From the NCBI GenBank assembly GCA_016212465.1, contig JACRGE010000013.1:1-32324 (forward strand): 32,324 nt of DNA. The letters are read 5' to 3'. Origin of the DNA: Candidatus Micrarchaeota archaeon. GTDB lineage: Archaea > Micrarchaeota > Micrarchaeia > Norongarragalinales > JACRGE01. Every line of letters begins with the position of its first letter. The stretch's first letter is position 1. The translations under genes were made by a program, and so were the position numbers. The notes beneath the pieces are model-generated. The model saw only the letters and a list, made by a program, of their open reading frames with translations, searched no databases and was not told where the DNA came from. Positions 916 to 26,174 of the stretch are shown here, one piece after another.

Positions 916-3306
916 ATGGGCACGGAATCTGAAGAGAAAGCATACCTGTTAATGGGTTTGCTGGCTTGCTCTGCACTTTTAATATATGCTGAATTGATAA
1001 ACGGATACCCGTTCCTGAACGACGACAACTATTCGCAGTTCTTGCCTGCGTTGCTTGTAGGGTTGAAGCAGCTGTTTGCTGGAACCATTCCCTTTATCAA
1101 CATGCACCAGATTGCTGGAACCCCCTTGCTTGAGATAGGGACTTACCCATTCTTCTATCCAGGAACAGTGGTTTCGTACCTTATATCCCACTGGTTCATT
1201 CAAGATGATTTCTCGCTAATTGAGGTTTTCGTCGTCACTCACCTGTTGCTTGGCTTCGTTGCAACATTCTATTTGGTGAAAAAACTTTGTGCGTCGAACC
1301 CCTTCGCATTCTTGGGGGGGATTGGGGCTTCGCTGTCTGGGTATATGATAATTGTTTCATCAAATTGGTACTATGCGGCGCCCACTGCATTTTTTCTGCC
1401 CCTTATATTCTTGCTGCAGGCCAAGAATTTGGAGGCGCCGTCCAAACGGAATGCTGTTGCAATGGGTCTAACAAGAGGCGTTTACTTCCTTTCCGGAAAC
1501 GTCCAGTACTTCGCATACTCCTTGTTCTTTGAACTCATATTCTTTGCGCTTTGGATGCTGCAGACGCCTGCTAAAAAAACGCATTCAACAATCAAAAGAG
1601 AGAGACTAACCAATTATATCCTTTCTTTGGCTATTTCCGGTGCAGTTGCACTTCCATTTGGGCTTATGATGTTATACAACACAGCCCACAGCTATGGCAG
1701 AACCGGGGCTGCTGGTCTAAGCGCGTATCTGACGACTCCGACTGCCAACCCAATAGACTTTTTCTTTGGCAACCTTTTGCCGTATCCATTCTATGGGGCA
1801 ATATTCAAATTCGCGAATTCGCCGTCTTCCTTCGGCAACATTTATTTCACTGGAGCCATATTCTTTTTAGCTGCAATCCTTGGAGGGATTCTTCTTTGGC
1901 GCAGGCACGGAAATAATCTTTTGGTCAAATACCCGTTTGCGACGCTTGCGTTGGTTGCGGCATTGCTCTCGTTCGGCGCATATGGCGGGCTGCACCTGCT
2001 TTTCCTACTCATTCCCATCTGGAACAAATTTAGCTGTCCCTTCAAGCTCGCGCTTTACGCAGATTTTTTCATCGTCCTTTTTGGTGTTCAGGTGCTTACA
2101 CAATTTTCTGGACGCTTTTCTGATGGAAGGTTCAAGAAAATGGTTTTGTTTGCGTTAAGTGTTTTCTTCCTCGGCCTAATGTTTTTGCAAGTGCATTACT
2201 CGTCAAAGACTCACTTCACTTACTTCAGCGACAGGCTTCCGTTGAACAGAAGCGAATTCAGCCAGTTTGCTGACGGGCGCACAGTAGCCTATTACACGAA
2301 CAGCTATTACGCTCCAGAAAACGGGCTCAGGCACGGAAAGCTGAATCACAGCGACTCGTCTTTCATGACAAGGAACTTTGCGAGCTACTATGAATTATAC
2401 AGCATCACGGGTTATGAGCCGTTGCAATCGGTTTCCCAAGTAACCAAGATACCGGTTCCCTGGGACAATATTGAGGGGCGCAGAGTTTCGCTCCAGTGGT
2501 TGTCTGAGTGGAGCGTCAAGTATTTGTTCGTCGCCTGCGACTCTCTCAAATACCATCCAGAACTCTGGAACCTTACTGTAGTCAAGAGTCTTGGAGAGAA
2601 GGGACTCGCCATATTAAAAAACGATGAAGCAAAATCCATCGTATTCTGCCAAGGAAACGGAAGGGTATCCTATTCATTTAAGGACAACGGACTTGAATTG
2701 AAGGCAAGGCTTGGATGCCCAGCCAACTGCACGGCAAGCGTTTTATACAACAAAAACTACAGATTGACGTTAAATGGGGAAGTGATTCCGCTCAAAGAAG
2801 ACGGCTTGGGCCGCATAGTGTTCGAGCTTCCAGCAGGTGAGAGCGAGGCGAGGCTTTACTACGAAAACAAACTATTTGAATATGGTGTATTTCTTGGGGT
2901 TGTTCTCCTTTTAATCATCCTCTTATTTTTCAGCTGGATTGAATCCATTATCAGCGGTTTGCTTGAATTCGTGACGCATAGAGTCAGAACAAGAACGTTA
3001 GCAATATTGGTTGGCCTCGTATTTCTCCTCCTGCTCGCAAGGGACATTTCAACGTTTCCTTTAGGCGTTCCAATCGATTGCTTAAGCAAACACAAGGCCA
3101 GTGCCGGAGAGGTATTCAAGTGCACGCGGCAGGGCCTGATTGAGGCAGGGGCCATGCGGCCTGATGTAACTGCGTTGAACAAAATCTCCACTCCCGTGGA
3201 AGAACCCTTTGAAAAAAAGCTGCGGCCGCCGCAGTGCAGTGAAGAGCTCAGAGTATTATCAAATACGGGCAACTCGACCAACGCACTAGCATTTCCATGG
3301 ACTTGA
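916..3306 (+). CDS. polytopic membrane protein of the GT-C glycosyltransferase type (YfhO/ArnT-like)
   Basis: 796 aa. More than 10 predicted TM helices at the N-terminus, an acidic NDDNY motif in the first extracytoplasmic loop, a large non-TM domain, then two C-terminal TM helices. No WWDYG (AglB/STT3) motif was seen. Confidence 0.5.
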   Translation: MGTESEEKAYLLMGLLACSALLIYAELINGYPFLNDDNYSQFLPALLVGLKQLFAGTIPFINMHQIAGTPLLEIGTYPFFYPGTVVSYLISHWFIQDDFSLIEVFVVTHLLLGFVATFYLVKKLCASNPFAFLGGIGASLSGYMIIVSSNWYYAAPTAFFLPLIFLLQAKNLEAPSKRNAVAMGLTRGVYFLSGNVQYFAYSLFFELIFFALWMLQTPAKKTHSTIKRERLTNYILSLAISGAVALPFGLMMLYNTAHSYGRTGAAGLSAYLTTPTANPIDFFFGNLLPYPFYGAIFKFANSPSSFGNIYFTGAIFFLAAILGGILLWRRHGNNLLVKYPFATLALVAALLSFGAYGGLHLLFLLIPIWNKFSCPFKLALYADFFIVLFGVQVLTQFSGRFSDGRFKKMVLFALSVFFLGLMFLQVHYSSKTHFTYFSDRLPLNRSEFSQFADGRTVAYYTNSYYAPENGLRHGKLNHSDSSFMTRNFASYYELYSITGYEPLQSVSQVTKIPVPWDNIEGRRVSLQWLSEWSVKYLFVACDSLKYHPELWNLTVVKSLGEKGLAILKNDEAKSIVFCQGNGRVSYSFKDNGLELKARLGCPANCTASVLYNKNYRLTLNGEVIPLKEDGLGRIVFELPAGESEARLYYENKLFEYGVFLGVVLLLIILLFFSWIESIISGLLEFVTHRVRTRTLAILVGLVFLLLLARDISTFPLGVPIDCLSKHKASAGEVFKCTRQGLIEAGAMRPDVTALNKISTPVEEPFEKKLRPPQCSEELRVLSNTGNSTNALAFPWT

Positions 3307-3317
3307 AAAACTCCAGC

Positions 3318-3944
3318 TTAATCACTTATTTCATAGCTCTTGATCAAACTCAGCTCTTCCTTTTCGCTAAGCGCATAAATTGAAAAGCGATCAAAATGAA
3401 ATGGTGAGTCAAGGCTTTCATTTTTAACCAGTTCCCAGGCGTTATGGAATTTGCTTGGGTCAATAGAGGCAAGAGAGAAATGGGGAATCAAAATATCACC
3501 GACAAACGGATAACCATATTCTCTCACGTTCTTCGCCAGAGCTTCTGGAAACGAATTAATCTTCTCCAAATAACGTTTTGGAATTGTTTTGGTGCGATAA
3601 GCCCTCAGACTATTGACCAGATTCACTTGAGCCCTCCTAATGGACTCAAGACTTTCTTTCTCTAGCATGCATACGATAGTCTCTTTTCCGGTTACGCTGT
3701 CATTAGAGAAAACGCTCCACTCCCTGACCCTAAAACTTTTTTTCTTGAGGCTCGCAGCGAATTTTTTCACGATGGTTTCAATGTCGGAAAAGCTCTTGAA
3801 ATCAGCTATATAGAGAGTGAGGTGTGGCTCGTCATCCAAATAAGTTTGTGGCCCAACCAAATTCCTTATACGCTTCTTTAGACGCATAAAGTGGTCATAA
3901 ATCCTTTGTTCTGGAATCAAGGCAAAAACCAGGAGCATGCACAC
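3318..3944 (-). CDS. 2H phosphoesterase superfamily protein (LigT/ThpR-like)
   Basis: Two H-x-T/S-x motifs, EPHLTLY and IPHFSLA, spaced as in 2'-5' RNA ligase and cyclic phosphodiesterase family members. Confidence 0.6.
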   Translation of the reverse strand: MCMLLVFALIPEQRIYDHFMRLKKRIRNLVGPQTYLDDEPHLTLYIADFKSFSDIETIVKKFAASLKKKSFRVREWSVFSNDSVTGKETIVCMLEKESLESIRRAQVNLVNSLRAYRTKTIPKRYLEKINSFPEALAKNVREYGYPFVGDILIPHFSLASIDPSKFHNAWELVKNESLDSPFHFDRFSIYALSEKEELSLIKSYEISD

Positions 3945-4039: not shown

Positions 4040-4825
4040 GTGGGTCTATTGATCAACTTGATTCCGATGGCTGGATTAGGAAAAAGATTTGCCGACGAAG
4101 GCTATGCCTTGCCCAAGCCGCTCATTCCGGTTTCAGGCAAGCCCATGATAGTAATGGCCTTGAGCATGATGCCGAAGGCGGACATAACAATTCTCGTTTG
4201 CAGGAAGGAGCATGTCGAGCAATATCATATTGACAAGGAGATAAGCAAGCACATTTCCAACGTGCATTGTATTCCAATAGATTTCAACACAGAAGGCCAG
4301 GCGTGCACCTGTCTCTTGGCAAGGGATTTCATTGATACGAACGAACCTCTTTTCATCGGCGCGTGCGACAACGGCATGCTGTGGGATGAAAAAAAGTTTA
4401 AAGAACTCACTGAAGAAAAGGATTCTGACGTGGTGTGCTGGGCGTTCAAGGGACAAAATAATGTTTTGTTAAATCCAAACGCATGGGGCTGGATAAAAAC
4501 GAGAGAAGATGGAAAAACGATTGAAAGAGTTTCGGTAAAGGTTCCAGTCAGCGACAAGATTCTGAATGACCCTGCTGTAATCGGCTCTTTCTGGTTCAGG
4601 ACGGGGAAATTGTTCATTGAAATAGCAGAGGACTTGATTAAAAACAATATCCGGGTCAACAACGAGTTCTATGTTGATAGTTGCGTCGGTCATGCAATCA
4701 AGAGGGGTTATACCTCAAAGGTCTTCATCGTCGACCAATACGTGGGGTGGGGCACGCCCAAGGACTTGAGGGAATACGAGTTCTGGGAAAAGTACTTCTG
4801 TTTGAACAAAAGGTGTTCATTGTGA
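4040..4825 (+). CDS. nucleotidyltransferase (sugar-phosphate or alcohol-phosphate cytidylyltransferase-like, LicC/IspD/TarI-type)
   Basis: N-terminal LIPMAGLGKRF glycine-rich loop (G-x-G-K-R-F) followed by the architecture of small NDP-sugar/CDP-alcohol pyrophosphorylases. GTG start at 4040. The stop overlaps the next gene's start (GTGA). Confidence 0.6.
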   Translation: MGLLINLIPMAGLGKRFADEGYALPKPLIPVSGKPMIVMALSMMPKADITILVCRKEHVEQYHIDKEISKHISNVHCIPIDFNTEGQACTCLLARDFIDTNEPLFIGACDNGMLWDEKKFKELTEEKDSDVVCWAFKGQNNVLLNPNAWGWIKTREDGKTIERVSVKVPVSDKILNDPAVIGSFWFRTGKLFIEIAEDLIKNNIRVNNEFYVDSCVGHAIKRGYTSKVFIVDQYVGWGTPKDLREYEFWEKYFCLNKRCSL

Positions 4826-5547
4826 AGCCAGTTCTTTCAGTGGTCGCGCCGTGTTACAACGAGGAGAAAAGCGTTCCCTTAATTGCCCAAGCATTCTCTA
4901 CGGCGATCGGAAAGAGAAGGGGCATTGAAGTAATTCTGGTGGACAACGGCTCGGCTGATGGAACGCAGACTGAGATAAAAAAGCAGGCAAAAAAATATTC
5001 TTTCATTAAATTGGTAGTAGTCAAGAAAAACATCGGTTATGGATTCGGTATTCATTCAGGGTTAAAGCATGCTGCAGGAGAATATGTGGTATGGACGCAC
5101 GCGGATCTTCAAACAAATCCAGCGGACGTAATCAAGGCGCTTGAAATCATTCTCAAGCAAGAAAAGCCTGAAAAATGTTTTGTGAAAGGAAAAAGAAAGG
5201 GGCGGCCGTTCTTCGATGTTTTTTTCACTCTTGGCATGGCGGTATTCGAGTCTGTTCTCCTCCGGAAGGTTTTGTACGACATCAACGCCCAACCAAATCT
5301 CTTCCACAGGTCATTCTTAGAAAAAGTCCCGAACCCCCCAAACGATTTTTCCTTTGACCTATATTTCTATTACATGGCAAAAAGAATGGGATACAAAACA
5401 ATACGTTTTCCAGTTGAATTCAGGAAAAGGGTTTTCGGTCAATCACACTGGAACACTGGGCTTAAACAAACGTGGAAGTTCATAAAGAGAACCCTAGAGT
5501 ATTCAATTAAATTAAGGAAGTCACTGGAGGAGGAGTCGCATGCTTAA
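4822..5547 (+). CDS. family-2 glycosyltransferase, polyprenyl/dolichyl-phosphate sugar synthase-like (GtrB/CsbB/DPM1-like)
   Basis: LSVVAPCYNEEKSV, ILVDNGSADGT and THADLQ motifs match the GT2 DxD fold. I take the GTG at 4822 as the start (4-nt GTGA overlap with the upstream stop). The track ORF beginning at 4681 is an upstream extension that would overlap the previous CDS. Confidence 0.65.
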   Translation: MKPVLSVVAPCYNEEKSVPLIAQAFSTAIGKRRGIEVILVDNGSADGTQTEIKKQAKKYSFIKLVVVKKNIGYGFGIHSGLKHAAGEYVVWTHADLQTNPADVIKALEIILKQEKPEKCFVKGKRKGRPFFDVFFTLGMAVFESVLLRKVLYDINAQPNLFHRSFLEKVPNPPNDFSFDLYFYYMAKRMGYKTIRFPVEFRKRVFGQSHWNTGLKQTWKFIKRTLEYSIKLRKSLEEESHA

Positions 5548-6127
5548 GATAATCCACCGCGTAAACACCATCAAAGAATTAAATAAAATTCCAAAGGAGC
5601 TTGGGGTGGAGGTTGATGTCAGGAGCTGTGGAAAAGAACTTATTCTCAACCACGAGCCTTCTCGGTCAGGAGACTTGCTTGATGATTATCTGACGAATTT
5701 TGGGCATGCATTCATTATATTGGAAATAAAGGAAGAGGGAATTGAGCAAAGAGTGATTGATTTATGCAAGAAGCACGGCGTTGACAACTATTTTCTTCTC
5801 AGTGTGTCTTTTCCATTTATTTACTTGCTTTCAAAGAAAGGTTTTAAAAAGCTCGCGCTACGCTTCTCTGAATTCGAGTCCATTGAAACCTGTTTGGCCA
5901 TGAGAGGAGAAGCAGAGTGGGTGTGGGCGGATACATTTGAGAAAAATCCATTGAAAAAAGAAGCTTATGAAAAACTGAAGGAAGCTGGATTCAGGATTTG
6001 CTTCGTTTGCCCATCGCGCTGGGGCAGGCCGCATGATATAAGAAATTATAATAATTACTTTAAAGAAAACGGTATTGAGCTGGATGCAGTCATGACCTCA
6101 GCAAAATACTTGGCGGAGTGGGGCTAA
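5540..6127 (+). CDS. GDPD/PLC-like phosphodiesterase superfamily protein
   Basis: N-terminal IIHRVNT...EVDVR...ILNHE resembles the HR...E.D...HD catalytic pattern of glycerophosphodiester phosphodiesterases, in a shortened 195-aa form. The start overlaps the upstream stop (ATGCTTAA). Confidence 0.4.
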   Translation: MLKIIHRVNTIKELNKIPKELGVEVDVRSCGKELILNHEPSRSGDLLDDYLTNFGHAFIILEIKEEGIEQRVIDLCKKHGVDNYFLLSVSFPFIYLLSKKGFKKLALRFSEFESIETCLAMRGEAEWVWADTFEKNPLKKEAYEKLKEAGFRICFVCPSRWGRPHDIRNYNNYFKENGIELDAVMTSAKYLAEWG

Positions 6128-6137
6128 TCCTCGCGAG

Positions 6138-8585
6138 ATGGATTTTTTTAATTTTAATAGTTTAAATATCTCTATTTATTTCTCAAGTGATTGGATGGAA
6201 GCAGAGGAAAAAATAATTGCACTATTTAACCCGCTCATGAGAAGGTTTTTCCGCAAGGAGCCTGGTTTCAACGAAAGAGTACGACTTTTGTTTAACTATG
6301 TTTTGAAAAACCAGTTTCTCAGGTTTTGTTTAGTCGGCGGGATTGCGACCATAGTCAACTATGCAGTTTTTCTTCTGTTTCTGTTGTTCTTCCACATCAA
6401 CTATCTCGTTTCCTCTGCTGTGGGATATGTTTCAGGCGTTTTTGTAGGATTCGACTTGAACAAGAAATTCACTTTCAAATCCGAGTCGAAGGAGTACTAC
6501 TCGGAAGTGATGGAGTACTTCGCGGTTTATACCATTTCGCTTTTTCTGGGTTTGGGCTTCCTGGCTTTTCTGGTAAACCTTAAACTGAATGTACTGCTTG
6601 CAAACGTTTTTTCCATAGCCCTCACCACGATGACCAATTTCTTGGGCGTGAAGTTCTTTGTTTTCAGCGATGCGGTATTTCATAAAAAAATAAATTTCTT
6701 GATCTACAGGTACCGTTATCTCCTAAATTACATGATCATTGGACTAAGTTCTATTATCGTCGAGATTGCCATCCTCTACTTCCTCGGACTGGGTTACGGC
6801 GATTTTTACCTTAAACTGCCTATCGGATTTTTGTCTGGTGTGTTGTTCAGCTACTACCTGAATGCAAAGCTCAACTTCAAGGTTCCAAAGGAAAAGAATT
6901 GGAGAACCTTCCGAATATTCCTCATAATTTCCGTATTCGCTTTTGCGTTAAACCTGCTTTTAATGAAGGTTATATACGGTCTGTTCATTTTCTCAAACTA
7001 CTCTGTTTCAAGACTCTTTACTTCCGCATGTATTTTCATGATAAGCTACTCGCTTCACAGGAGATTCACCTTCACTGACGTAAAGGAGGTTGGCGTCGCA
7101 ATTTATCTTTCAGATGGGGAAGATCTTGGGGAGATAAAGTCCAAAGTAAAACACTACCCGGATTTCATTCACTTGGATTTAGTGGACAAAACATATGCTC
7201 CTAGTGCAGCCAAAGTAGATCTCGATATGGCTGAACAGGTAGCGAGGGAATGGCCCCTTCTCCCCAAGATGCTTCACGTAATGTCTCGCCATCCAATCAA
7301 ATGGATTGAATCTGCTCACACGCAAGCCGATTACATCGTCTTCCACGCGGAAAGTGATGAAGACCCAAACAAGGTTATAAGTCTTTGCAGAAGACTCGGC
7401 AAAAAAGTCGGCATTTCCGTTCGAGTGGACACGAATCTGAAAGAAATCGAGAAATATTTCAGCAAAGTAGATCTTGTTCAAATACTGGGCATAAGGAACC
7501 CAGGCTATTCCAACCAGCACATGGAGGCCGAGGCGTTGGAGAAACTGCGCGAGCTCAACCAATACAGGAAGAGATATCCCTTTGAAGTCTGCATGGACGG
7601 CGGGGTCAAGCTCACCAACATCCACTTGATTGATGCGAGATATATCGTGTCAGCTTCCTCCGTGCTGAAATCAAGCGATTCGGTGAAAGCAATCTATGAT
7701 TTAAAGACCAGCGCCAGGTATTTCTACGATTACGACAAGAATTTCGTGAAGTTCATTGAAACTGAAGTCAAAAACGCTGTGGAGCGGCTTGATTTCATTG
7801 AATCTGGAACGTTTGTAGGCTCATTCGCCGAAAAACCGGGGCTCGAGGGCATCGCGGACATAGACGTAGTAATCATAGTGGATAAGCTAACCAGACAAAA
7901 ATATGGGAAGTTGTTGGCTCAGTTTGAGGAATTGAAGGAAATAATCAAAACTGATTTCGGCTATGACCCTGTAGTAAACCCGACTTTTGGCCCATTGAAA
8001 TTCAATTCAAGCGAAAAATCCGTTGTCCTTCATGTGATGATATACGACATAGCCGGGCACGTGGAGCACTGCAAGGAAAGTCCTTTCACATGCTTGGACT
8101 GGCAACGGTCGCCCCGCTATTTCAAGAAACCCATGTCATACTTCTGCGAAGTAACGTGCCTCAAGCCAAACGATTTCTTCAACGCCAGGCGCTCGGTGAG
8201 CGACTACTTGAAGGACCTCAAGAACTCCAGGATCTCCTACAGGGAATACGAGTTCAACGGCACTGCAACTAAACAAGTGAAGAAATACGTTCCAATGGGC
8301 AATAGGGACCGCTTTGAGTTCTCTTATCACATCATGAAATTCTGCATGCTGAATTTCCTGAAGCTCTACACTAAAAGCAATTACTGGGGCTCACCAGAGG
8401 GGATTGTGGATTCTTATTTCGACGTGTTTGGAGTTAATGCCGAGCAGCACAAAAAGTTTTTCTTTGACTTGCGTGAATTCAAGTTGCAGAACCGGTTCCC
8501 GAATTGGTCTGACAAGCACGAGGCAGGCATTTACGAATTCCTGAAAGACTTCGAAACCCAGTTCAAGGGATATTTCTATGACTAA
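6138..8585 (+). CDS. multidomain membrane protein: two GtrA-like 4-TM modules + ribulose-phosphate-3-epimerase-like TIM barrel + pol-beta-superfamily nucleotidyltransferase-fold (LicD/fukutin- or MNT-like) domain
   Basis: Residues ~60-180 and ~190-310 each form a GtrA-like set of helices (FCLVGGIATIVNYAVF...; YRYLLNYMIIGLSSIIVEIAILYF...). Residues ~320-520 carry IHLDLVDKTY, LHVMS, FHAESD, ILGIRNPGYSNQ and CMDGGVK, which line up with the RPE motifs H-x-D, HLMV, FH-E, NPGFGGQ and VDGGV. Residues ~560-600 read GTFVGSFAEKPGLEGIADIDVVIIVD, i.e. the G[ST]xxG...DxD nucleotidyltransferase-fold motif. Confidence 0.6.
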   Translation: MDFFNFNSLNISIYFSSDWMEAEEKIIALFNPLMRRFFRKEPGFNERVRLLFNYVLKNQFLRFCLVGGIATIVNYAVFLLFLLFFHINYLVSSAVGYVSGVFVGFDLNKKFTFKSESKEYYSEVMEYFAVYTISLFLGLGFLAFLVNLKLNVLLANVFSIALTTMTNFLGVKFFVFSDAVFHKKINFLIYRYRYLLNYMIIGLSSIIVEIAILYFLGLGYGDFYLKLPIGFLSGVLFSYYLNAKLNFKVPKEKNWRTFRIFLIISVFAFALNLLLMKVIYGLFIFSNYSVSRLFTSACIFMISYSLHRRFTFTDVKEVGVAIYLSDGEDLGEIKSKVKHYPDFIHLDLVDKTYAPSAAKVDLDMAEQVAREWPLLPKMLHVMSRHPIKWIESAHTQADYIVFHAESDEDPNKVISLCRRLGKKVGISVRVDTNLKEIEKYFSKVDLVQILGIRNPGYSNQHMEAEALEKLRELNQYRKRYPFEVCMDGGVKLTNIHLIDARYIVSASSVLKSSDSVKAIYDLKTSARYFYDYDKNFVKFIETEVKNAVERLDFIESGTFVGSFAEKPGLEGIADIDVVIIVDKLTRQKYGKLLAQFEELKEIIKTDFGYDPVVNPTFGPLKFNSSEKSVVLHVMIYDIAGHVEHCKESPFTCLDWQRSPRYFKKPMSYFCEVTCLKPNDFFNARRSVSDYLKDLKNSRISYREYEFNGTATKQVKKYVPMGNRDRFEFSYHIMKFCMLNFLKLYTKSNYWGSPEGIVDSYFDVFGVNAEQHKKFFFDLREFKLQNRFPNWSDKHEAGIYEFLKDFETQFKGYFYD

Positions 8586-9210
8586 ACTCTATTTCATCAG
8601 ACACCCCAAGATCGGCTTGAATGTTGGAACCAAGTTTGTCGGTCAACGCACGGACGCAGAGGCTTCCTTGAATGAACCTGAGTTGAACGCGTTGTGGAGT
8701 AAACTAAGGGACAAGATTATAAGCTCGATATTCACTTCCCCACTCAGAAGGTGCTTGGACACTGCGAGGCGCATCCAGGAAAAAAGCGGCATTCCTCAAA
8801 TAACAATCGACAACAACCTAAAGGAAATAGATTACGGCGAAGCAGACGGGAAGGACTTGGAGTTCTTGAAAAAGAACTATCCTAGGATAATTAGGGAATG
8901 GAGTGAGGGAAAAGACCCGCGCTTTCCAGGCGGGGAAAATTATGCGGACGTTTTGCAGAGAGTAAATTCGTTCCTTGCCAATTTCAAAAAAGGGCTTAAG
9001 CAAAATTGCGTGGTTTTCACTCACAACGTTTTTTTGCGGGTGTTGCTTGGTTCGCAGTTGAACATCCCGAGAAATAGATGGTATAAAATAAGGATTGAAC
9101 ACCTAGACCCCTACGAGGTGATAGTCACGAGAGACGGTAAGGTGTTCGTCAATTTGTCCAAGGAGCAGTCAGACAATTTGTTTTCAAGCCTGTGCGTCCA
9201 AACAAAGTGA
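8578..9210 (+). CDS. histidine phosphatase superfamily (phosphoglycerate-mutase-like) protein
   Basis: LYFIRHPK near the N-terminus, SPLRRCLDTA, EIDYGEADG and VVFTHNVFLRVL match the RHG, SPL-R and H motifs of the family. Overlaps the upstream stop (ATGACTAA). Confidence 0.55.
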   Translation: MTKLYFIRHPKIGLNVGTKFVGQRTDAEASLNEPELNALWSKLRDKIISSIFTSPLRRCLDTARRIQEKSGIPQITIDNNLKEIDYGEADGKDLEFLKKNYPRIIREWSEGKDPRFPGGENYADVLQRVNSFLANFKKGLKQNCVVFTHNVFLRVLLGSQLNIPRNRWYKIRIEHLDPYEVIVTRDGKVFVNLSKEQSDNLFSSLCVQTK

Positions 9211-9215
9211 AAACC

Positions 9216-10499
9216 TTAACCTACTCTGTCCAAGTAGAAGGTCGCAAAACCGTATGCACCGCGCCGAAGGGTTATATTCTTGTCCAAGGAGTACCGCGTT
9301 TGCGTATAACCGTCTTTGGCAAGCGACACTTTGTAAGTTCCGTCAGGTACTTCGTCCTCGGGGTATATCTTGAAGGTTCCTTGTAAATCAGTCAGTTTCA
9401 GATACTCCTTTACGGGGGCGTCTGTCCGCGCATCCCTCAAGGTAACAGTCACGTTAGTGAGACCAGTCTGGTTCCTTGAGTGCCTTACAATCCCCATAAA
9501 CAGAGGATACTCACCCAGGGTGAAGTTTATAACGTAAATGTGGTCAGCATCAACAACTTGATTGTAGTAGTCACTCATAAGCATGGAGTGGGAAGCCATG
9601 ATCCTGTAAGCTCCTGCAGAATGCGTCTTGTTGATGAAGTAGTAACCAAATTCGTCTGCTCTTGCTTCATCCACTTTCCTGAGTTCCCCAGTAAAGTTAC
9701 TGTAAGCGAATTTCAGTACCATAATTAATGCACCCCTCAATGGGACCCAGTTTTTGCTTACAACAGTACCATACAAGAAAGGCGGCGTAAGCCACACAAA
9801 TTCGTTCTGGTAACTACCTTTGTAGGCTACGACTTTTTCTGTTGCCAAGAACCCTCGTTTGTAGAACTTAAGTTTAAGAAGAGAGTTTGGACGAATGCCG
9901 TCTATGGCGTATATTCTAAACGTACCAATCCGGTCTGTTAACATGCTCTTCAAGAGAGTGGTTCCATAGCTGTCGTAGACGTCAACCCGAACCCATCCAA
10001 CCCGCCTTTGACTCCGTGCATCAGAAACCACTCCATAGAGCAGTGGCTTTTCCATCAAGGTAAAATTGACTTGAAGTGGACTGCCCTGGACTATGAATGG
10101 GAAAAAATACTCGGTCTGAAGCCCCTCGTAATAAACTACGAGCATGTACGCGCCTGTGGAAAAAGCCTGGCCAAAGAAGTAACTGCCGTTTTCGTTCGTC
10201 AACGTCTCAGCTATTTCAGTAAAGTTGCCAGTAAAGTTATCGTATGCGAACTTGAATACAAAAACTGCCGCGTTTTTCAGAGAGATGTTATTCCAGCCGT
10301 AAACCACTCCTTTAAGTGAAGCGTTTGCTTCAGTTACATTTGTTTCTATTCCCTTGGTCGTCAGCGCGCCAGTTGTTTTTCTCGTCAATTGAGCGCTTGA
10401 AGCCATTTCTTCGAAATAAATCAGCTGAAATAACACGAAGCCTGCGACAACAAGCGCTACCACAAAACCCAAAGCAAACAACCGCACTTCCCGGTACAT
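9216..10499 (-). CDS. N-terminally anchored surface protein with about four carboxypeptidase-regulatory-like beta-sandwich repeats, rich in N-glycosylation sequons
   Basis: One N-terminal TM helix, then repeats of about 100 aa with the recurring pattern YG.V.....G....V.V.D..G....TD..G.F.I. There are 13 N-x-S/T sequons in 427 aa. Confidence 0.5.
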   Translation of the reverse strand: MYREVRLFALGFVVALVVAGFVLFQLIYFEEMASSAQLTRKTTGALTTKGIETNVTEANASLKGVVYGWNNISLKNAAVFVFKFAYDNFTGNFTEIAETLTNENGSYFFGQAFSTGAYMLVVYYEGLQTEYFFPFIVQGSPLQVNFTLMEKPLLYGVVSDARSQRRVGWVRVDVYDSYGTTLLKSMLTDRIGTFRIYAIDGIRPNSLLKLKFYKRGFLATEKVVAYKGSYQNEFVWLTPPFLYGTVVSKNWVPLRGALIMVLKFAYSNFTGELRKVDEARADEFGYYFINKTHSAGAYRIMASHSMLMSDYYNQVVDADHIYVINFTLGEYPLFMGIVRHSRNQTGLTNVTVTLRDARTDAPVKEYLKLTDLQGTFKIYPEDEVPDGTYKVSLAKDGYTQTRYSLDKNITLRRGAYGFATFYLDRVG

Positions 10500-21869: not shown

Positions 21870-23858
21870 TTACAGGAAGTACTGGAAGTTGATTTTGCTT
21901 TCCTCCAATTTCTTCAATTCCTCTCGCACTCTTTTTGCATGCTCTTGGATTTCGTTAGTCCCTTCTGCCGAAATGTGCTTGTACCTTCCCTGAAGCTTCA
22001 GATAAGGTTCTACTGGTTTGAGTTCCGCAGGGGAGTAAGTGAACTTAAACAAGCCATTTTCTATTTCAAACAAGTTCCATAGGCCGCATTCAACCGCGCT
22101 TCTGGCTACGCCAACAGTCTGGTTGTTTGGAAAACGCCAGGAAAGAAAACAAGGGGCGTGAACCACAATGAAACGGAATCCGGTCATCGCCTTTGCTTTC
22201 TTCAGCTTTTTCTCAAAGTCAGGTAGGAATCCTATTGAAGCGGTTGCGGAATAAGGGACTGCGTGAGCAGTTGCAATGAACGCGACGTTCTTCTTCCACT
22301 CGTGTTTTCCACCCACTTCAGCAGGAGAAGTGGTAGTGGAAGCAAGAAATGGGGTGGCGCCACTTCTCTGAACTCCTGTGTTGTGAACAACGATGCCATC
22401 AGCGATGAAGTTATGCTCCCCCTCTACTCTTAAATCCAATGTTGGCTCTGTTCCTATTAATTTTTTGTATTTTACCTTCTCCATTTCAAAATACTGATTC
22501 CTTATTAAAAAGTTCTGGTACGTATACTGGCTTGGATATTTTTTGATATTCCACTCTTTTTTTTCTGAAAAGCAGATATACCCCCCTTCTGTGTCCTCTA
22601 ACAAATTTCTATAAACAATTTTAGTGCCTTTTTTTGTTTTTCGCCAATGTATTTTTCCAACCCTATAGTTCATGGTTTGCAAAAGCAGCCTAAGCCTATT
22701 TAGGAGATCACGACTTGATGAAACGAACCTAAAGCTGTTTTCAACCTTGTAGCCATCCGTTGATACGAGACCTCTGACAAAAGCTTTCTTTTCTTCTTTC
22801 GGAATCGTGAATACCCATTCGGGAATTGTTTTATTTTTTGCTCCATGACCAAAACCCATAGAATCAATAAATCTTGCCAAGTTTACTGAATTGATGTATA
22901 AGTAGTTGCTATCAGTTCTGCTCACCCTGTTTTTAAAAATACGCGAGTGCAACCAAATCAATCTTTTTCTTTCCTTGCTTTTTTCTGGTAATGCGAATCC
23001 AGTTTCTGCCTTTTTGATTCTACACCATCCATCACCGACATACATACCGAGATATTCCATCAACTCGGGGCTAGATTTTTCGGGTATTGAGATGAAATTT
23101 ATTTTATTTACTTTATAGTCGCCTTTTTTTGAAAGTCTTATATTCTTAAACCTGAAAGACTCGGCAATTTCAAGGTTCTTTAGTACAACTACCTCATCAC
23201 CGATGTTAATCTTTGCAAGTGTCTTCCAGATCAGTGTGTTTTGCTTGCCTCTTCCATTTCTCTTTAGTATTAAAAAAGGATGATTTGAAGTTGCTTTTAT
23301 AGAGTGGTGTGATGTCTCTAATTCAAACACTGGTTTTTCACCATTGTCGAATACACCCGTGCATTTTTTAAGTATTGGCCTGTATGTTTTTTGATTAAAT
23401 GCATAGATTTTATCCCCCTCCTTAATTTCCATTATTTTTTTAATACCATGTTCTGTCATTATCAGTGTTGAGCGGCTCAAACAGTTCGCATAGCATTCGT
23501 TGTCGTAGCATATGCAAACCATATCCTCATTGCGTTCCATCGCCCCGCTCAATGCGCCAAAGCCTATGTCGTAAATGCCACCGTCTCCGCCAACGCAGAC
23601 TGAAACCCCTTTCTTCTTCTCGTGCTTTAAAGCCCGAGACACTCCAGATGCAACTGCGGGAGTGTTTTCAAAGAGCGAATGAATCAAAGGAACGTTCCAA
23701 GTGGAGTTAGGGTATTTCGTGCTTGTTACTTCCATGCAGCCTGTTGCAAGAGAAACAATTATATCTTCACCAAGTCCAGCGAGGAGGTTTCGAATAGCGA
23801 TGGCCGGCCCACACCCCGGGCATGACTTGTGTCCCTTGAAATACAGTTCTTTTTCCAT
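21870..23858 (-). CDS. porB: 2-oxoacid:ferredoxin oxidoreductase beta subunit (TPP-binding, PorB-like), interrupted by an intein
   Basis: N-extein HKSCPGCG...VCVGGDGGIYDIGF...CYDNECYAN and C-extein TGVQRSGATP... to the end rejoin into a protein of about 294 aa with a contiguous DNE.Y.NTG.QRS TPP-binding motif. Confidence 0.8.
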   Translation of the reverse strand: MEKELYFKGHKSCPGCGPAIAIRNLLAGLGEDIIVSLATGCMEVTSTKYPNSTWNVPLIHSLFENTPAVASGVSRALKHEKKKGVSVCVGGDGGIYDIGFGALSGAMERNEDMVCICYDNECYANCLSRSTLIMTEHGIKKIMEIKEGDKIYAFNQKTYRPILKKCTGVFDNGEKPVFELETSHHSIKATSNHPFLILKRNGRGKQNTLIWKTLAKINIGDEVVVLKNLEIAESFRFKNIRLSKKGDYKVNKINFISIPEKSSPELMEYLGMYVGDGWCRIKKAETGFALPEKSKERKRLIWLHSRIFKNRVSRTDSNYLYINSVNLARFIDSMGFGHGAKNKTIPEWVFTIPKEEKKAFVRGLVSTDGYKVENSFRFVSSSRDLLNRLRLLLQTMNYRVGKIHWRKTKKGTKIVYRNLLEDTEGGYICFSEKKEWNIKKYPSQYTYQNFLIRNQYFEMEKVKYKKLIGTEPTLDLRVEGEHNFIADGIVVHNTGVQRSGATPFLASTTTSPAEVGGKHEWKKNVAFIATAHAVPYSATASIGFLPDFEKKLKKAKAMTGFRFIVVHAPCFLSWRFPNNQTVGVARSAVECGLWNLFEIENGLFKFTYSPAELKPVEPYLKLQGRYKHISAEGTNEIQEHAKRVREELKKLEESKINFQYFL
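22380..23483 (-). mobile_element. intein (368 aa) with a LAGLIDADG homing-endonuclease domain, inserted in the TPP-binding motif of porB
   Basis: Starts with Cys (CLSRSTLIM), has a TxxH block (LETSHHSIKAT), two LAGLIDADG-like blocks (LMEYLGMYVGDGW and FVRGLVSTDGY), and ends ...FIADGIVVHN followed by Thr at +1. Short hand-counted samples give about 33% GC for the intein versus about 42% for the flanking extein. Confidence 0.8.
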
Positions 23859-25037: not shown

Positions 25038-26174
25038 CTACACCCATATTGTTCCGCATCTATTCTTTTTCAAATCTTGATAAAGGTTCGCAATAACCTT
25101 CAGCGGAACGTCCTTTCCTCCGAGCCCGCAGATGACGTCCAGGAGACTGGGCTTTTTCTTCTCAGAAACCCCGCACAACGCGGCCTTGATTTCGTTGGCG
25201 AGAATTCCTTCGTTCCCCAGGCTAAGGTCTTTTTCAATCACCGCAATCCCTTTCCTCCCTTCGAGGACTCCTGCTATCTCCTTTCCGGGGAATGGCCGGA
25301 AGCACTTTATCCTCAACAGCCCCACTTTTTCTTTTTTCTCCCTCAGTGAATCAACTGCCCTCTCTGCGTTTTCTGCAAGACTCCCCATTGTAGCAAAGAG
25401 GTAATCCGCGTCCTCTGTGCAATACTCTTCTACAAAAGGAAACTGTTTTCTCTTGAATTTTTTCTCAAACTCTGCGGCAACCTCTTTAATCGTTTTCACT
25501 GAGGAAAGCAAATCCTCTTGTTGCATTTCCTTGAGCCCTTGATAATGCTCTGGTGAAACGAATGCGCCGAATGTAAGCGGATTGCCTATATCAAGAGAAG
25601 AAGCGGGACTGAATTTTGGGAGAAAGGAATCAACTTCTTCTTGGGAGGGAATCTCCAAAGGAGAGATTTCATGCGTTAGGAAAAAGCCGTCAAAACAAAC
25701 CATTGTTGGAATAAGGGATGCTTCTGCGATCTTAAATGCTTGAATCAACGTGTCAACAGTTTCTTGATTGTTTTTGCAATAGAGTTGAATCCAGCCAGTG
25801 TCTCTTTGGGAAAGCGAATCCTGCCAATCATTCCATATGTTGATGGGAGCACTCACCGCCCGGTTTGCAACTGCCATGACAAGGGGTAACCTCATCCCAG
25901 CTGCGTTATGAAGCGCTTCGTGCATGAGAAGCAGTCCTTGCGATGAGGTTGCGGTGAAAGTCCTTGAACCAGCTGCGCTTGCGCCGATGAGTGCGCTTAT
26001 TGCAGATAACTCTGATTCCACGTCAACGAACTCATATCCATACTGTGGTTGGATGCGGGAAAGCTCTTCAGGAATATGCGTTGAAGGAGTAATAGGATAA
26101 GCCGCTATCACGCCTGGTCTGCAGAGGGCCGTAACATGTGCGACTGCAATGCTTCCCTCCATTATTTTCTTCAT
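25038..26174 (-). CDS. porA: 2-oxoacid:ferredoxin oxidoreductase alpha subunit
   Basis: AVAHVTALCRPGVIAAYPITPST...FTATSSQGLLLMHEALHNAAGMRLPLVMAVANRA is the POR/VOR/KOR alpha core. Substrate specificity cannot be assigned from sequence. Confidence 0.8.
   Translation of the reverse strand: MKKIMEGSIAVAHVTALCRPGVIAAYPITPSTHIPEELSRIQPQYGYEFVDVESELSAISALIGASAAGSRTFTATSSQGLLLMHEALHNAAGMRLPLVMAVANRAVSAPINIWNDWQDSLSQRDTGWIQLYCKNNQETVDTLIQAFKIAEASLIPTMVCFDGFFLTHEISPLEIPSQEEVDSFLPKFSPASSLDIGNPLTFGAFVSPEHYQGLKEMQQEDLLSSVKTIKEVAAEFEKKFKRKQFPFVEEYCTEDADYLFATMGSLAENAERAVDSLREKKEKVGLLRIKCFRPFPGKEIAGVLEGRKGIAVIEKDLSLGNEGILANEIKAALCGVSEKKKPSLLDVICGLGGKDVPLKVIANLYQDLKKNRCGTIWV

Follow-up and report, generated by a model that had tools for sequence, protein, structure and literature searches.

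A tandem GtrA–epimerase–nucleotidyltransferase fusion protein from a Micrarchaeota archaeon belongs to a conserved gene cassette that may build lipid-linked sugar donors

We analyzed a 32,324-nt contig of a Candidatus Micrarchaeota archaeon (GenBank assembly GCA_016212465.1, contig JACRGE010000013.1, positions 1 to 32,324 of the forward strand; hereafter the window), in which a plus-strand gene at 6138..8585 encodes a fusion protein of 815 aa in an intact open reading frame (ORF) running from ATG to TAA. The protein consists, in order, of two GtrA modules, a barrel of the ribulose-phosphate 3-epimerase (RPE) type, and a nucleotidyltransferase (NTase) of the pol-beta fold; the version deposited at NCBI (MBI5228549.1, 'GtrA family protein') starts at M20 (ATG, nt 6195) and has 796 aa. 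Among 5.8 billion protein clusters searched, 30 full-length relatives were found (E = 1e-114 to 1e-269), which align collinearly at 35–55% identity without internal break, and identity to bacterial copies is 30–36%. Because the homologs are collinear from end to end, the fusion ORF is real, and is neither a chance ORF nor an artefact of an internal frameshift; a chimeric ORF is ruled out in the same way, the ~30 homologs coming from independent assemblies. The original prediction had described a four-module fusion and had named two genes joined by a frameshift as the alternative, which does not apply across the 815 aa. All six motifs that it quoted lie where it placed them (IHLDLVD at aa 344, FHAE at 402, NPGYSNQ at 454, MDGGVK at 486, GTFVGSFA at 557, and IADIDVVII at 572), and its interpretation stands for the GtrA pair, the RPE-type barrel, and the NTase fold, but not for the LicD/fukutin identity that it gave to the last module. 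The four modules are indeed present, with the correction that most relatives have a fifth, a histidine phosphatase. A search of the databases for the architecture revealed that the protein is no orphan, its relatives lying within a conserved multi-gene cassette.

Pfam GtrA_DPMS_TM (PF04138) matches the fusion protein twice (E = 1.2e-36, 125.9 bits against a gathering score of 26.1). The best stretch is module 1 (6321..6665, plus strand, aa 62-176; hydropathy peaks at aa 65-83, 87-107, 128-146, and 152-175), and the second is module 2 (6720..7073, plus strand, approximately aa 195-312; peaks at aa 200-218, 223-241, 260-278, and 282-302). The eight hydrophobic segments (4 + 4) lie within aa 55-302, with none beyond, and together with the two Pfam stretches they agree with the two tandem GtrA modules of four transmembrane (TM) helices that had been proposed. 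In several relatives, module 1 is encoded on its own by a small gene; wherever a related locus has the RPE region, module 2 is joined to the RPE barrel, and fewer than 10 residues link the last GtrA helix ('HRRFTF') to RPE strand beta-1. The tandem fusion provides natural evidence for GtrA proteins acting as pairs. Evidence that GtrA proteins flip polyprenyl-phosphate sugars is indirect even for the prototypes (PMC11127046). In two further proteins of ~830 aa (P0031 and P0032), a GtrA module is likewise combined with an enzyme for sugar or nucleotide phosphates, there a PRK/uridine-kinase domain (PF00485).

The RPE-type (ribulose-phosphate-binding) barrel (7086..7703, plus strand, aa 317-522) matches Pfam Ribul_P_3_epim (PF00834) at aa 332-509 (E = 1.7e-25, 90 bits against a cutoff of 21.1), and phmmer relates it to solved RPEs, including human RPE (3ovp/3qc3; E = 1e-14), and to a solved allulose-6-phosphate 3-epimerase (E = 2.5e-12). 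H345, D347, H380, and D487 align in phmmer with the metal-ligand positions of human RPE, whose H35, D37, H70, and D175 are the metal and acid-base residues. This tetrad is invariant in 14 of 14 family sequences, as expected for an RPE-like middle domain whose metal-binding His and Asp residues are kept in orthologs, and M382 and the DGG loop are invariant as well. The barrel thus shares with RPE and allulose-6-phosphate 3-epimerase the fold, the H/D/H/D set, and the conserved Met (M382), and its DGG and PGxxxQ loops match the phosphate-binding loops of RPE. It differs in the strand-2 motif, which is HxDxMDGxFVPN in RPE and HxDLVDxT(Y/F) in the cassette barrel, in always being fused to GtrA, and in staying far below the equivalog cutoffs (rpe, TIGR01163: 90.6 bits against 212.6; NF004076: 97.7 bits against 165). 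Judged by its sequence, the barrel is a divergent, catalytically complete RPE paralogue, not the housekeeping Rpe.

The C-terminal part (7704..8585, plus strand, aa 523-815) comprises a pol-beta-fold NTase, with G561-S562...D574-x-D576, and a helical second domain. NTP_transf_2 (PF01909) matches aa 544-600 weakly (E = 0.0055, 17.5–19.3 bits against a cutoff of 21); the SAR11 homolog reaches 21.3 bits, and 21 of 40 relatives in which the NTase is joined to a histidine phosphatase match at E <= 0.01 (best E = 9e-7). The motif V560-G561-S562, x11, D574-I-D576-V fits the generic pol-beta signature hG[GS]x9-13Dh[DE]h. Across the family, G561, D574, and D576 do not vary, and at least 90% of sequences have S562; in the same 40 relatives, all four residues, the S included, are invariant. 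An AlphaFold2 model of the region (28 sequences, pLDDT 88) shows the pol-beta NTase domain and, after it, a helical one; its nearest folds are ANT(9), AadA, and KNTase, with 206 residues aligned across both domains of 6sxj and 7uy4, and Foldseek agrees weakly on an ANT-like fold. The order of NTase domain and helical substrate-binding domain is that of ANT(9), ANT(3'')(9)/AadA, and ANT(4')/KNTase, whereas identity to these enzymes is only 8–13% (Foldseek E = 2.5e-3, TM ~0.5), and neither a PDB sequence match nor an ANT Pfam family match was found. According to the model, the C-terminal domain is a divergent two-domain NTase laid out like the ANT/KNTase enzymes. The DxD of the NTase fold is therefore intact as had been anticipated, but the supposed LicD/fukutin motif (GTFVGSFA...IADIDVVII) is the generic pol-beta motif, DxD being common to the whole superfamily. 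The LicD profile (PF04991) did not match aa 521-815, for which PF01909 was the only match at E <= 10 (HMMER filters drop most matches above ~0.1), and LicD, fukutin, and FKRP were absent from the best structural matches; the missing LicD match and the ANT-like nearest folds led us to reject a LicD/fukutin identity.

The NTase has a family-specific, invariant His-rich block (H632, H641, H644, SPFT, and W655). When 1.84 billion cluster representatives were searched exhaustively with HMMER, only 264 clusters matched at E <= 1e-3, and by this measure the NTase is a separate, small, and distinct family. Its commonest form has ~480 aa, the NTase being followed by His_Phos_1 in 40 of 40 such proteins tested; no relative of the NTase–phosphatase protein was found in viral contigs. 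HEPN and MNT proteins occur among the structural matches of the C-terminal model, and we considered whether the helical domain is a HEPN RNase or part of a toxin–antitoxin system. We rejected this identity, as the domain lacks the Rx4-6H motif (it reads RRSVSDY) and is conserved inside a glycosylation cassette.

The fifth module is encoded in the window by a separate plus-strand ORF (8578..9210; MBI5228550.1), which overlaps the fusion gene by 8 nt (ATGACTAA). It matches His_Phos_1 (PF00300; E = 6e-32, 111 bits), its closest solved relative is CobC (3hjg, E = 1e-16), with FBPase-2 further down (E = 1e-7), and the catalytic core RH...R...E...H is visible as R8-H9, R57/R58, E120, and H149. Its R, H, and H do not vary among 40 relatives. 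Most relatives carry the NTase and the phosphatase on one polypeptide, including all 40 of the bacterial-type relatives scanned and most of the archaeal ones. The fusion ORF ends TAT GAC TAA, and the ATG of the phosphatase lies inside tATGACTAA, exactly at the domain linker. Since the ATG falls at the linker, a similar 8-nt overlap occurs at 5540, and splits at the same boundary are seen in three other loci (L005, L013, and L018), the split is probably natural; a sequencing frameshift through a 1-nt error is the less likely explanation.

The fusion and phosphatase genes, which form the core of the cassette, are the last two of five that form a tightly overlapping operon at 4040-9210, with start/stop overlaps at 4822-4825 (GTGA), 5540-5547 (ATGCTTAA), and 8578-8585. 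The first gene (4040..4825, plus strand) encodes an RmlA/GlmU-like sugar-1-phosphate nucleotidylyltransferase (NTP-transferase; PF00483, E = 2e-6; TIGR01208, E = 2e-13). The second (4822..5547, plus strand) encodes a family 2 glycosyltransferase (GT2) of the polyprenyl-phosphate type (PF00535) of 241 aa if read from GTG 4822; the listed start at TTG 4681 is probably wrong, and the N-terminus from GTG 4822 is the usual MKPxLSVV...YNE. Its best solved relatives are ArnC, Pyrococcus furiosus DPMS (5mlz, E = 1.5e-9), and GtrB (5ekp), all polyprenyl-phosphate glycosyltransferases. Hydropathy indicates no TM helix in this GT2, which probably sits on the GtrA modules in the manner of a DPMS split into two proteins. 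The 8-nt overlap at 5540 joins it to the third gene (5540..6127, plus strand), which encodes a conserved partner of 195 aa, a GDPD/PLC-like phosphodiesterase barrel with a complete catalytic set; neither a Pfam match nor a signal peptide was found in this protein. Identity of the Micrarchaeota protein is 43% to its SAR11 counterpart and 48–51% to copies labelled Marinimicrobia and candidate phyla radiation (CPR), an unusually high conservation across domains of life that exceeds that of the fusion protein. Upstream of the operon, on the minus strand (3318..3944), lies a gene for a 2H phosphoesterase of the cyclic-phosphodiesterase family (PF13563, E = 1.4e-6), which keeps both HxT/S motifs, with H41 (HLTL) and H155 (HFSL) invariant in 14 orthologs, and which weakly matches DUF1045 and TIGR03223, both associated with phn operons. 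In relatives, the 2H gene lies directly downstream of the phosphatase gene.

We collected further loci from the gene neighbourhoods of homologs and from a scan of GTDB representative genomes, and mapped them by tblastn (39 loci, 35 of them distinct). The cassette reads (GtrA-)GtrA-RPE, NTase, histidine phosphatase, 2H, an AraD-type aldolase_II (4-epimerase), NTP_transferase, sometimes a free GtrA, GT2, and the ~195-aa protein, and both gene set and order are near-constant across the 35 distinct loci, from archaea and from six groups of bacteria, on every contig long enough to show them. The aldolase_II is found in 25 of the 35; the SAR11 protein barely reaches the AraD subfamily NF006047 (257.8 bits, cutoff 257). 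Archaeal carriers are DPANN (Woese-, Pace-, Nano-, and Micrarchaeota). Bacterial carriers are Pelagibacteraceae (SAR11, including the complete genome NZ_CP172844.1), Actinomarina, Neomarinimicrobiota, and the Bacteroidota Cytophagaceae, Chitinophagia, Flavobacteriales, and Aquirufa (the metagenome-assembled genomes [MAGs] of L031/L034, with Sediminibacterium), together with MAGs labelled Patescibacteria or Saccharibacteria (CPR). In bacterial loci the genes are divided as GtrA-RPE, NTase–phosphatase, and 2H, and in archaeal-type loci they form either one ORF or GtrA followed by GtrA-RPE-NTase-phosphatase. The phosphatase is fused to 2H in L005 (9919-11169, 416 aa) and L013 (~4474-5700), a further Rosetta-stone link. 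PMT_2 and YfhO genes, both of the GT-C type, flank the cassette in L001-L004; L006 has a weak PMT_2 match (E = 0.019) below the cutoff. The fused architecture of the archaeal DPANN type, at 39–45% identity to the window, also occurs under other MAG labels: L010/L006 (Patescibacteria), L016 (Saccharibacteria), L019 (Methanosarcinales), and L018 (Thermoplasmatota). These loci point either to horizontal transfer or to contigs that were mis-binned or mislabelled. In databases the proteins go under unspecific names ('GtrA family protein'; 'pentose-5-phosphate-3-epimerase/putative flippase GtrA/broad specificity phosphatase PhoE'), and our literature search found no paper on the fusion architecture or the cassette, in line with the original prediction, which knew of no described protein with this domain combination.

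A plus-strand gene at 916..3306 encodes a polytopic membrane protein of 796 aa with at least 10 hydrophobic segments, for which Pfam, NCBIfam, and homolog annotation gave no family. Its orthologs adjoin the cassette in three archaeal loci (L005 at 15087, L017 at 16093, and L021 at 17319; E = 1e-95 to 1e-112), and it is a candidate GT-C-like extracytoplasmic transferase, possibly of a new kind. Directly downstream of the operon, a minus-strand gene (9216-10499) encodes a 427-aa protein with an N-terminal TM segment and three CarboxypepD_reg repeats, possibly a surface protein and thus a glycosylation acceptor. The remaining genes of the window are of archaeal type (exosome Rrp4/Csl4, LonB, archaeal PheRS, and DUF373). 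At 21870-23858 on the minus strand, the thiamine pyrophosphate-binding subunit (TPP_enzyme_C) of a 2-oxoacid:ferredoxin oxidoreductase is split by an intein with a LAGLIDADG homing-endonuclease domain, and a POR_N/PFOR_II subunit is encoded at 25038-26174. Rfam and tRNA scans of the window gave no matches.

We suggest, with confidence a little above even, that the cassette is a membrane-tethered assembly line that would convert a pentulose 5-phosphate into a polyprenyl-phosphate-linked sugar for extracytoplasmic glycosylation of the Gtr type. This reading builds on domain identities, intact active-site motifs, fusion patterns, and strict gene co-occurrence with the RmlA-like enzyme, the polyprenyl-phosphate GT2, GtrA, and the GDPD-like enzyme, all of which are established directly, and the fusions among RPE, NTase, phosphatase, and 2H indicate, by the Rosetta-stone argument, that the parts are functionally linked. 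The RPE-like barrel, with AraD where present, would interconvert pentulose 5-phosphates of the pentose-phosphate pathway and so set the configuration; the NTase, histidine phosphatase, GDPD-like, and 2H enzymes would rework the phosphate to give an anomerically activated sugar; and the RmlA-like enzyme would produce a nucleoside diphosphate (NDP)-sugar. The GT2, docked on the GtrA modules, would then load the sugar onto polyprenyl phosphate, and the GtrA pair would export the lipid-linked donor to a GT-C enzyme for extracytoplasmic glycosylation. The identity of the sugar, the order of the steps, the docking of the GT2, and flipping by GtrA are parts of the model that we infer. Several observations weigh against it. 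AraD is missing from 10 of the 35 distinct loci and from the 32-kb window, which has no recognisable GT-C either, the 796-aa membrane protein being without family match; the barrel also matches the allulose-6-phosphate 3-epimerase profile (E = 6e-19), so that a hexulose substrate is possible; and a soluble first step leaves the universal GtrA-RPE tether unexplained. Furthermore, two nucleotidyltransferases and three phosphoester hydrolases exceed the needs of a simple NDP-sugar route, and part of the set may therefore serve another role.

A more speculative and, in our view, doubtful proposal is that the cassette is a previously unknown route that activates a ketopentose (xylulo- or ribulofuranose) as glycosyl donor. 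The 5-phosphate would be removed, letting the furanose ring close; the ANT-like NTase would nucleotidylate a ring hydroxyl; the GDPD-like enzyme would cyclise the resulting phosphodiester to a cyclic phosphate; and the 2H enzyme would open the cyclic phosphate so as to leave the phosphate on the anomeric carbon, much as PhnP-type enzymes open ribose 1,2-cyclic phosphate. It would then fall to the RmlA-like enzyme and the GT2 to make the NDP-linked and the polyprenyl-phosphate-linked donor. The scheme uses every gene of the cassette and is chemically coherent; and because the tertiary anomeric hydroxyl of a ketopentofuranose is difficult to phosphorylate directly, it would suit such a sugar. 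Among the ten clusters looked up, all of which derive from metagenomes or MAGs, no relative was seen in an organism with a xylulofuranose glycan. The biosynthetic origin of the xylulofuranose residues in the Escherichia coli O95/O97 O antigens is stated as unknown (PMC7685785), and the scheme, if true, would bear on it, although for now that link is only a lead.

Alternatively, the RPE-like barrel, perhaps with the NTase and the phosphatase, could act at the membrane on a polyprenyl-phosphate-linked intermediate, much like DprE1/E2 or the SDR epimerase acting on lipid-linked ribofuranose, with GtrA presenting the lipid and not flipping it. We consider this unlikely. RPE chemistry depends on a free 2-keto group, and a furanose in glycosidic linkage has none; moreover, to go by the linker length, strand beta-1 would start next to the membrane, with the catalytic face of the barrel presumably turned to the opposite side. 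The proposal has in its favor the universal GtrA-RPE fusion with its short linker. In addition, the GtrA_DPMS_TM fold is the lipid-binding TM domain of P. furiosus DPMS (PMC12992685), and in the pentofuranose systems of PMC11127046 lipid loading comes, as a rule, before epimerisation.

Two further explanations depend on the nature of the NTase and its hydrolytic partners, and we regard both as quite improbable. One follows from the original prediction, with the C-terminal domain as a LicD/fukutin-type phosphotransferase that would move pentitol- or pentulose-phosphate from a CDP-donor to give a teichoic-acid-like phosphodiester decoration. A pol-beta fold with DxD is present, the conserved GDPD-like partner is of a type typical of polyol-phosphodiester metabolism, and the RmlA-like enzyme could in principle cytidylylate pentulose 5-phosphate. 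Against these points stand the absent LicD match and the ANT-like nearest folds given above, the lack of a pentitol-making reductase among the Pfam assignments of the cassette genes, and the transferase of the cassette itself, a polyprenyl-phosphate GT2, which makes glycosyl and not alditol-phosphate lipid donors. The other takes the NTase, 2H, GDPD-like, and phosphatase enzymes as a nucleotide-based regulatory or clean-up module that services an ordinary GtrA/GT2 pathway, for example through turnover of 2'-5'-linked or cyclic nucleotides or by recycling the breakdown products of labile nucleotide-sugars. Elsewhere, a pol-beta NTase and a 2H phosphoesterase work as a pair that builds and breaks down 2'-5' oligonucleotides, the structural matches include HEPN and MNT proteins, and the phosphoester enzymes are more numerous than a simple pathway needs; but the fusions interlink NTase, phosphatase, 2H, and RPE, the set is kept in streamlined genomes such as those of SAR11, the helical domain is without the HEPN motif, and an effector or sensor domain is absent.

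That the RPE-like domain is a housekeeping epimerase of the pentose-phosphate pathway, incidentally fused to a membrane module and uninformative about the glycosylation substrate, is very improbable, since, although its catalytic tetrad is intact and DPANN genomes are small and often fuse genes, it falls far short of the rpe equivalog cutoff and the GtrA-RPE fusion recurs within the same cassette in unrelated phyla, including SAR11.

The cassette occurs in microbes that rank among the most abundant and the hardest to cultivate (SAR11, Actinomarina, Marinimicrobia, freshwater Bacteroidota, DPANN, and CPR-labelled genomes), and its retention under strong genome streamlining suggests that it probably makes an important surface structure. 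In the searches made, its enzyme set matched no described nucleotide-sugar or lipid-sugar pathway. Solving it would define new sugar-activation chemistry and would assign roles to the NTase and the 195-aa GDPD-like protein, two families for which Pfam has no model.

As a general kind, systems that produce lipid-linked sugar donors for glycosylation outside the cytoplasm are known; the novelty lies in the enzyme set and the fusions. One of the nearest counterparts is P. furiosus DPMS, in which a GT2 is fused to GtrA_DPMS_TM and both folds cooperate at the membrane, as we propose for the cassette, where, by contrast, different polypeptides carry the GT2 and the GtrA-type TM domain, and it is to the latter that other enzymes are attached. 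The PRPP-based pentofuranose three-component systems and mycobacterial decaprenyl-phosphoryl-arabinose (DPA) synthesis combine PPPRS/DPPRS with a phosphatase, an epimerase, a flippase, and a GT-C, and the small flippase Rv3789 is GtrA-like (PMC11127046). The logic is shared: a sugar derived from the pentose-phosphate pathway, removal of the 5-phosphate, auxiliary epimerases by which the sugar is varied, a lipid-phosphate donor, and a small flippase. However, the cassette has no UbiA-type phosphoribosyl pyrophosphate transferase and takes a GT2 and NTP-transferase route instead, its epimerases are of the RPE/AraD type (for keto-sugar phosphates) and not SDR/DprE enzymes acting on a lipid-linked sugar, and its phosphatase is of the His_Phos_1 type and not HAD or PAP2. 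With the Gtr three-component systems (GtrA/GtrB/GtrC; CsbB/GtcA/YfhO in Gram-positives) the cassette has in common a GtrA-family module, a GtrB/ArnC/DPMS-like GT2, and, in several relatives, adjoining PMT_2/YfhO genes of the GT-C type. It differs from them in that its GtrA comes twice and is joined to three or four soluble enzymes, that the GT2 is without TM helices of its own, and that it brings its own sugar-phosphate enzymes (RPE-like, AraD, NTase, histidine phosphatase, 2H, and GDPD-like), a dedicated set which argues that the sugar is not an ordinary UDP-hexose.

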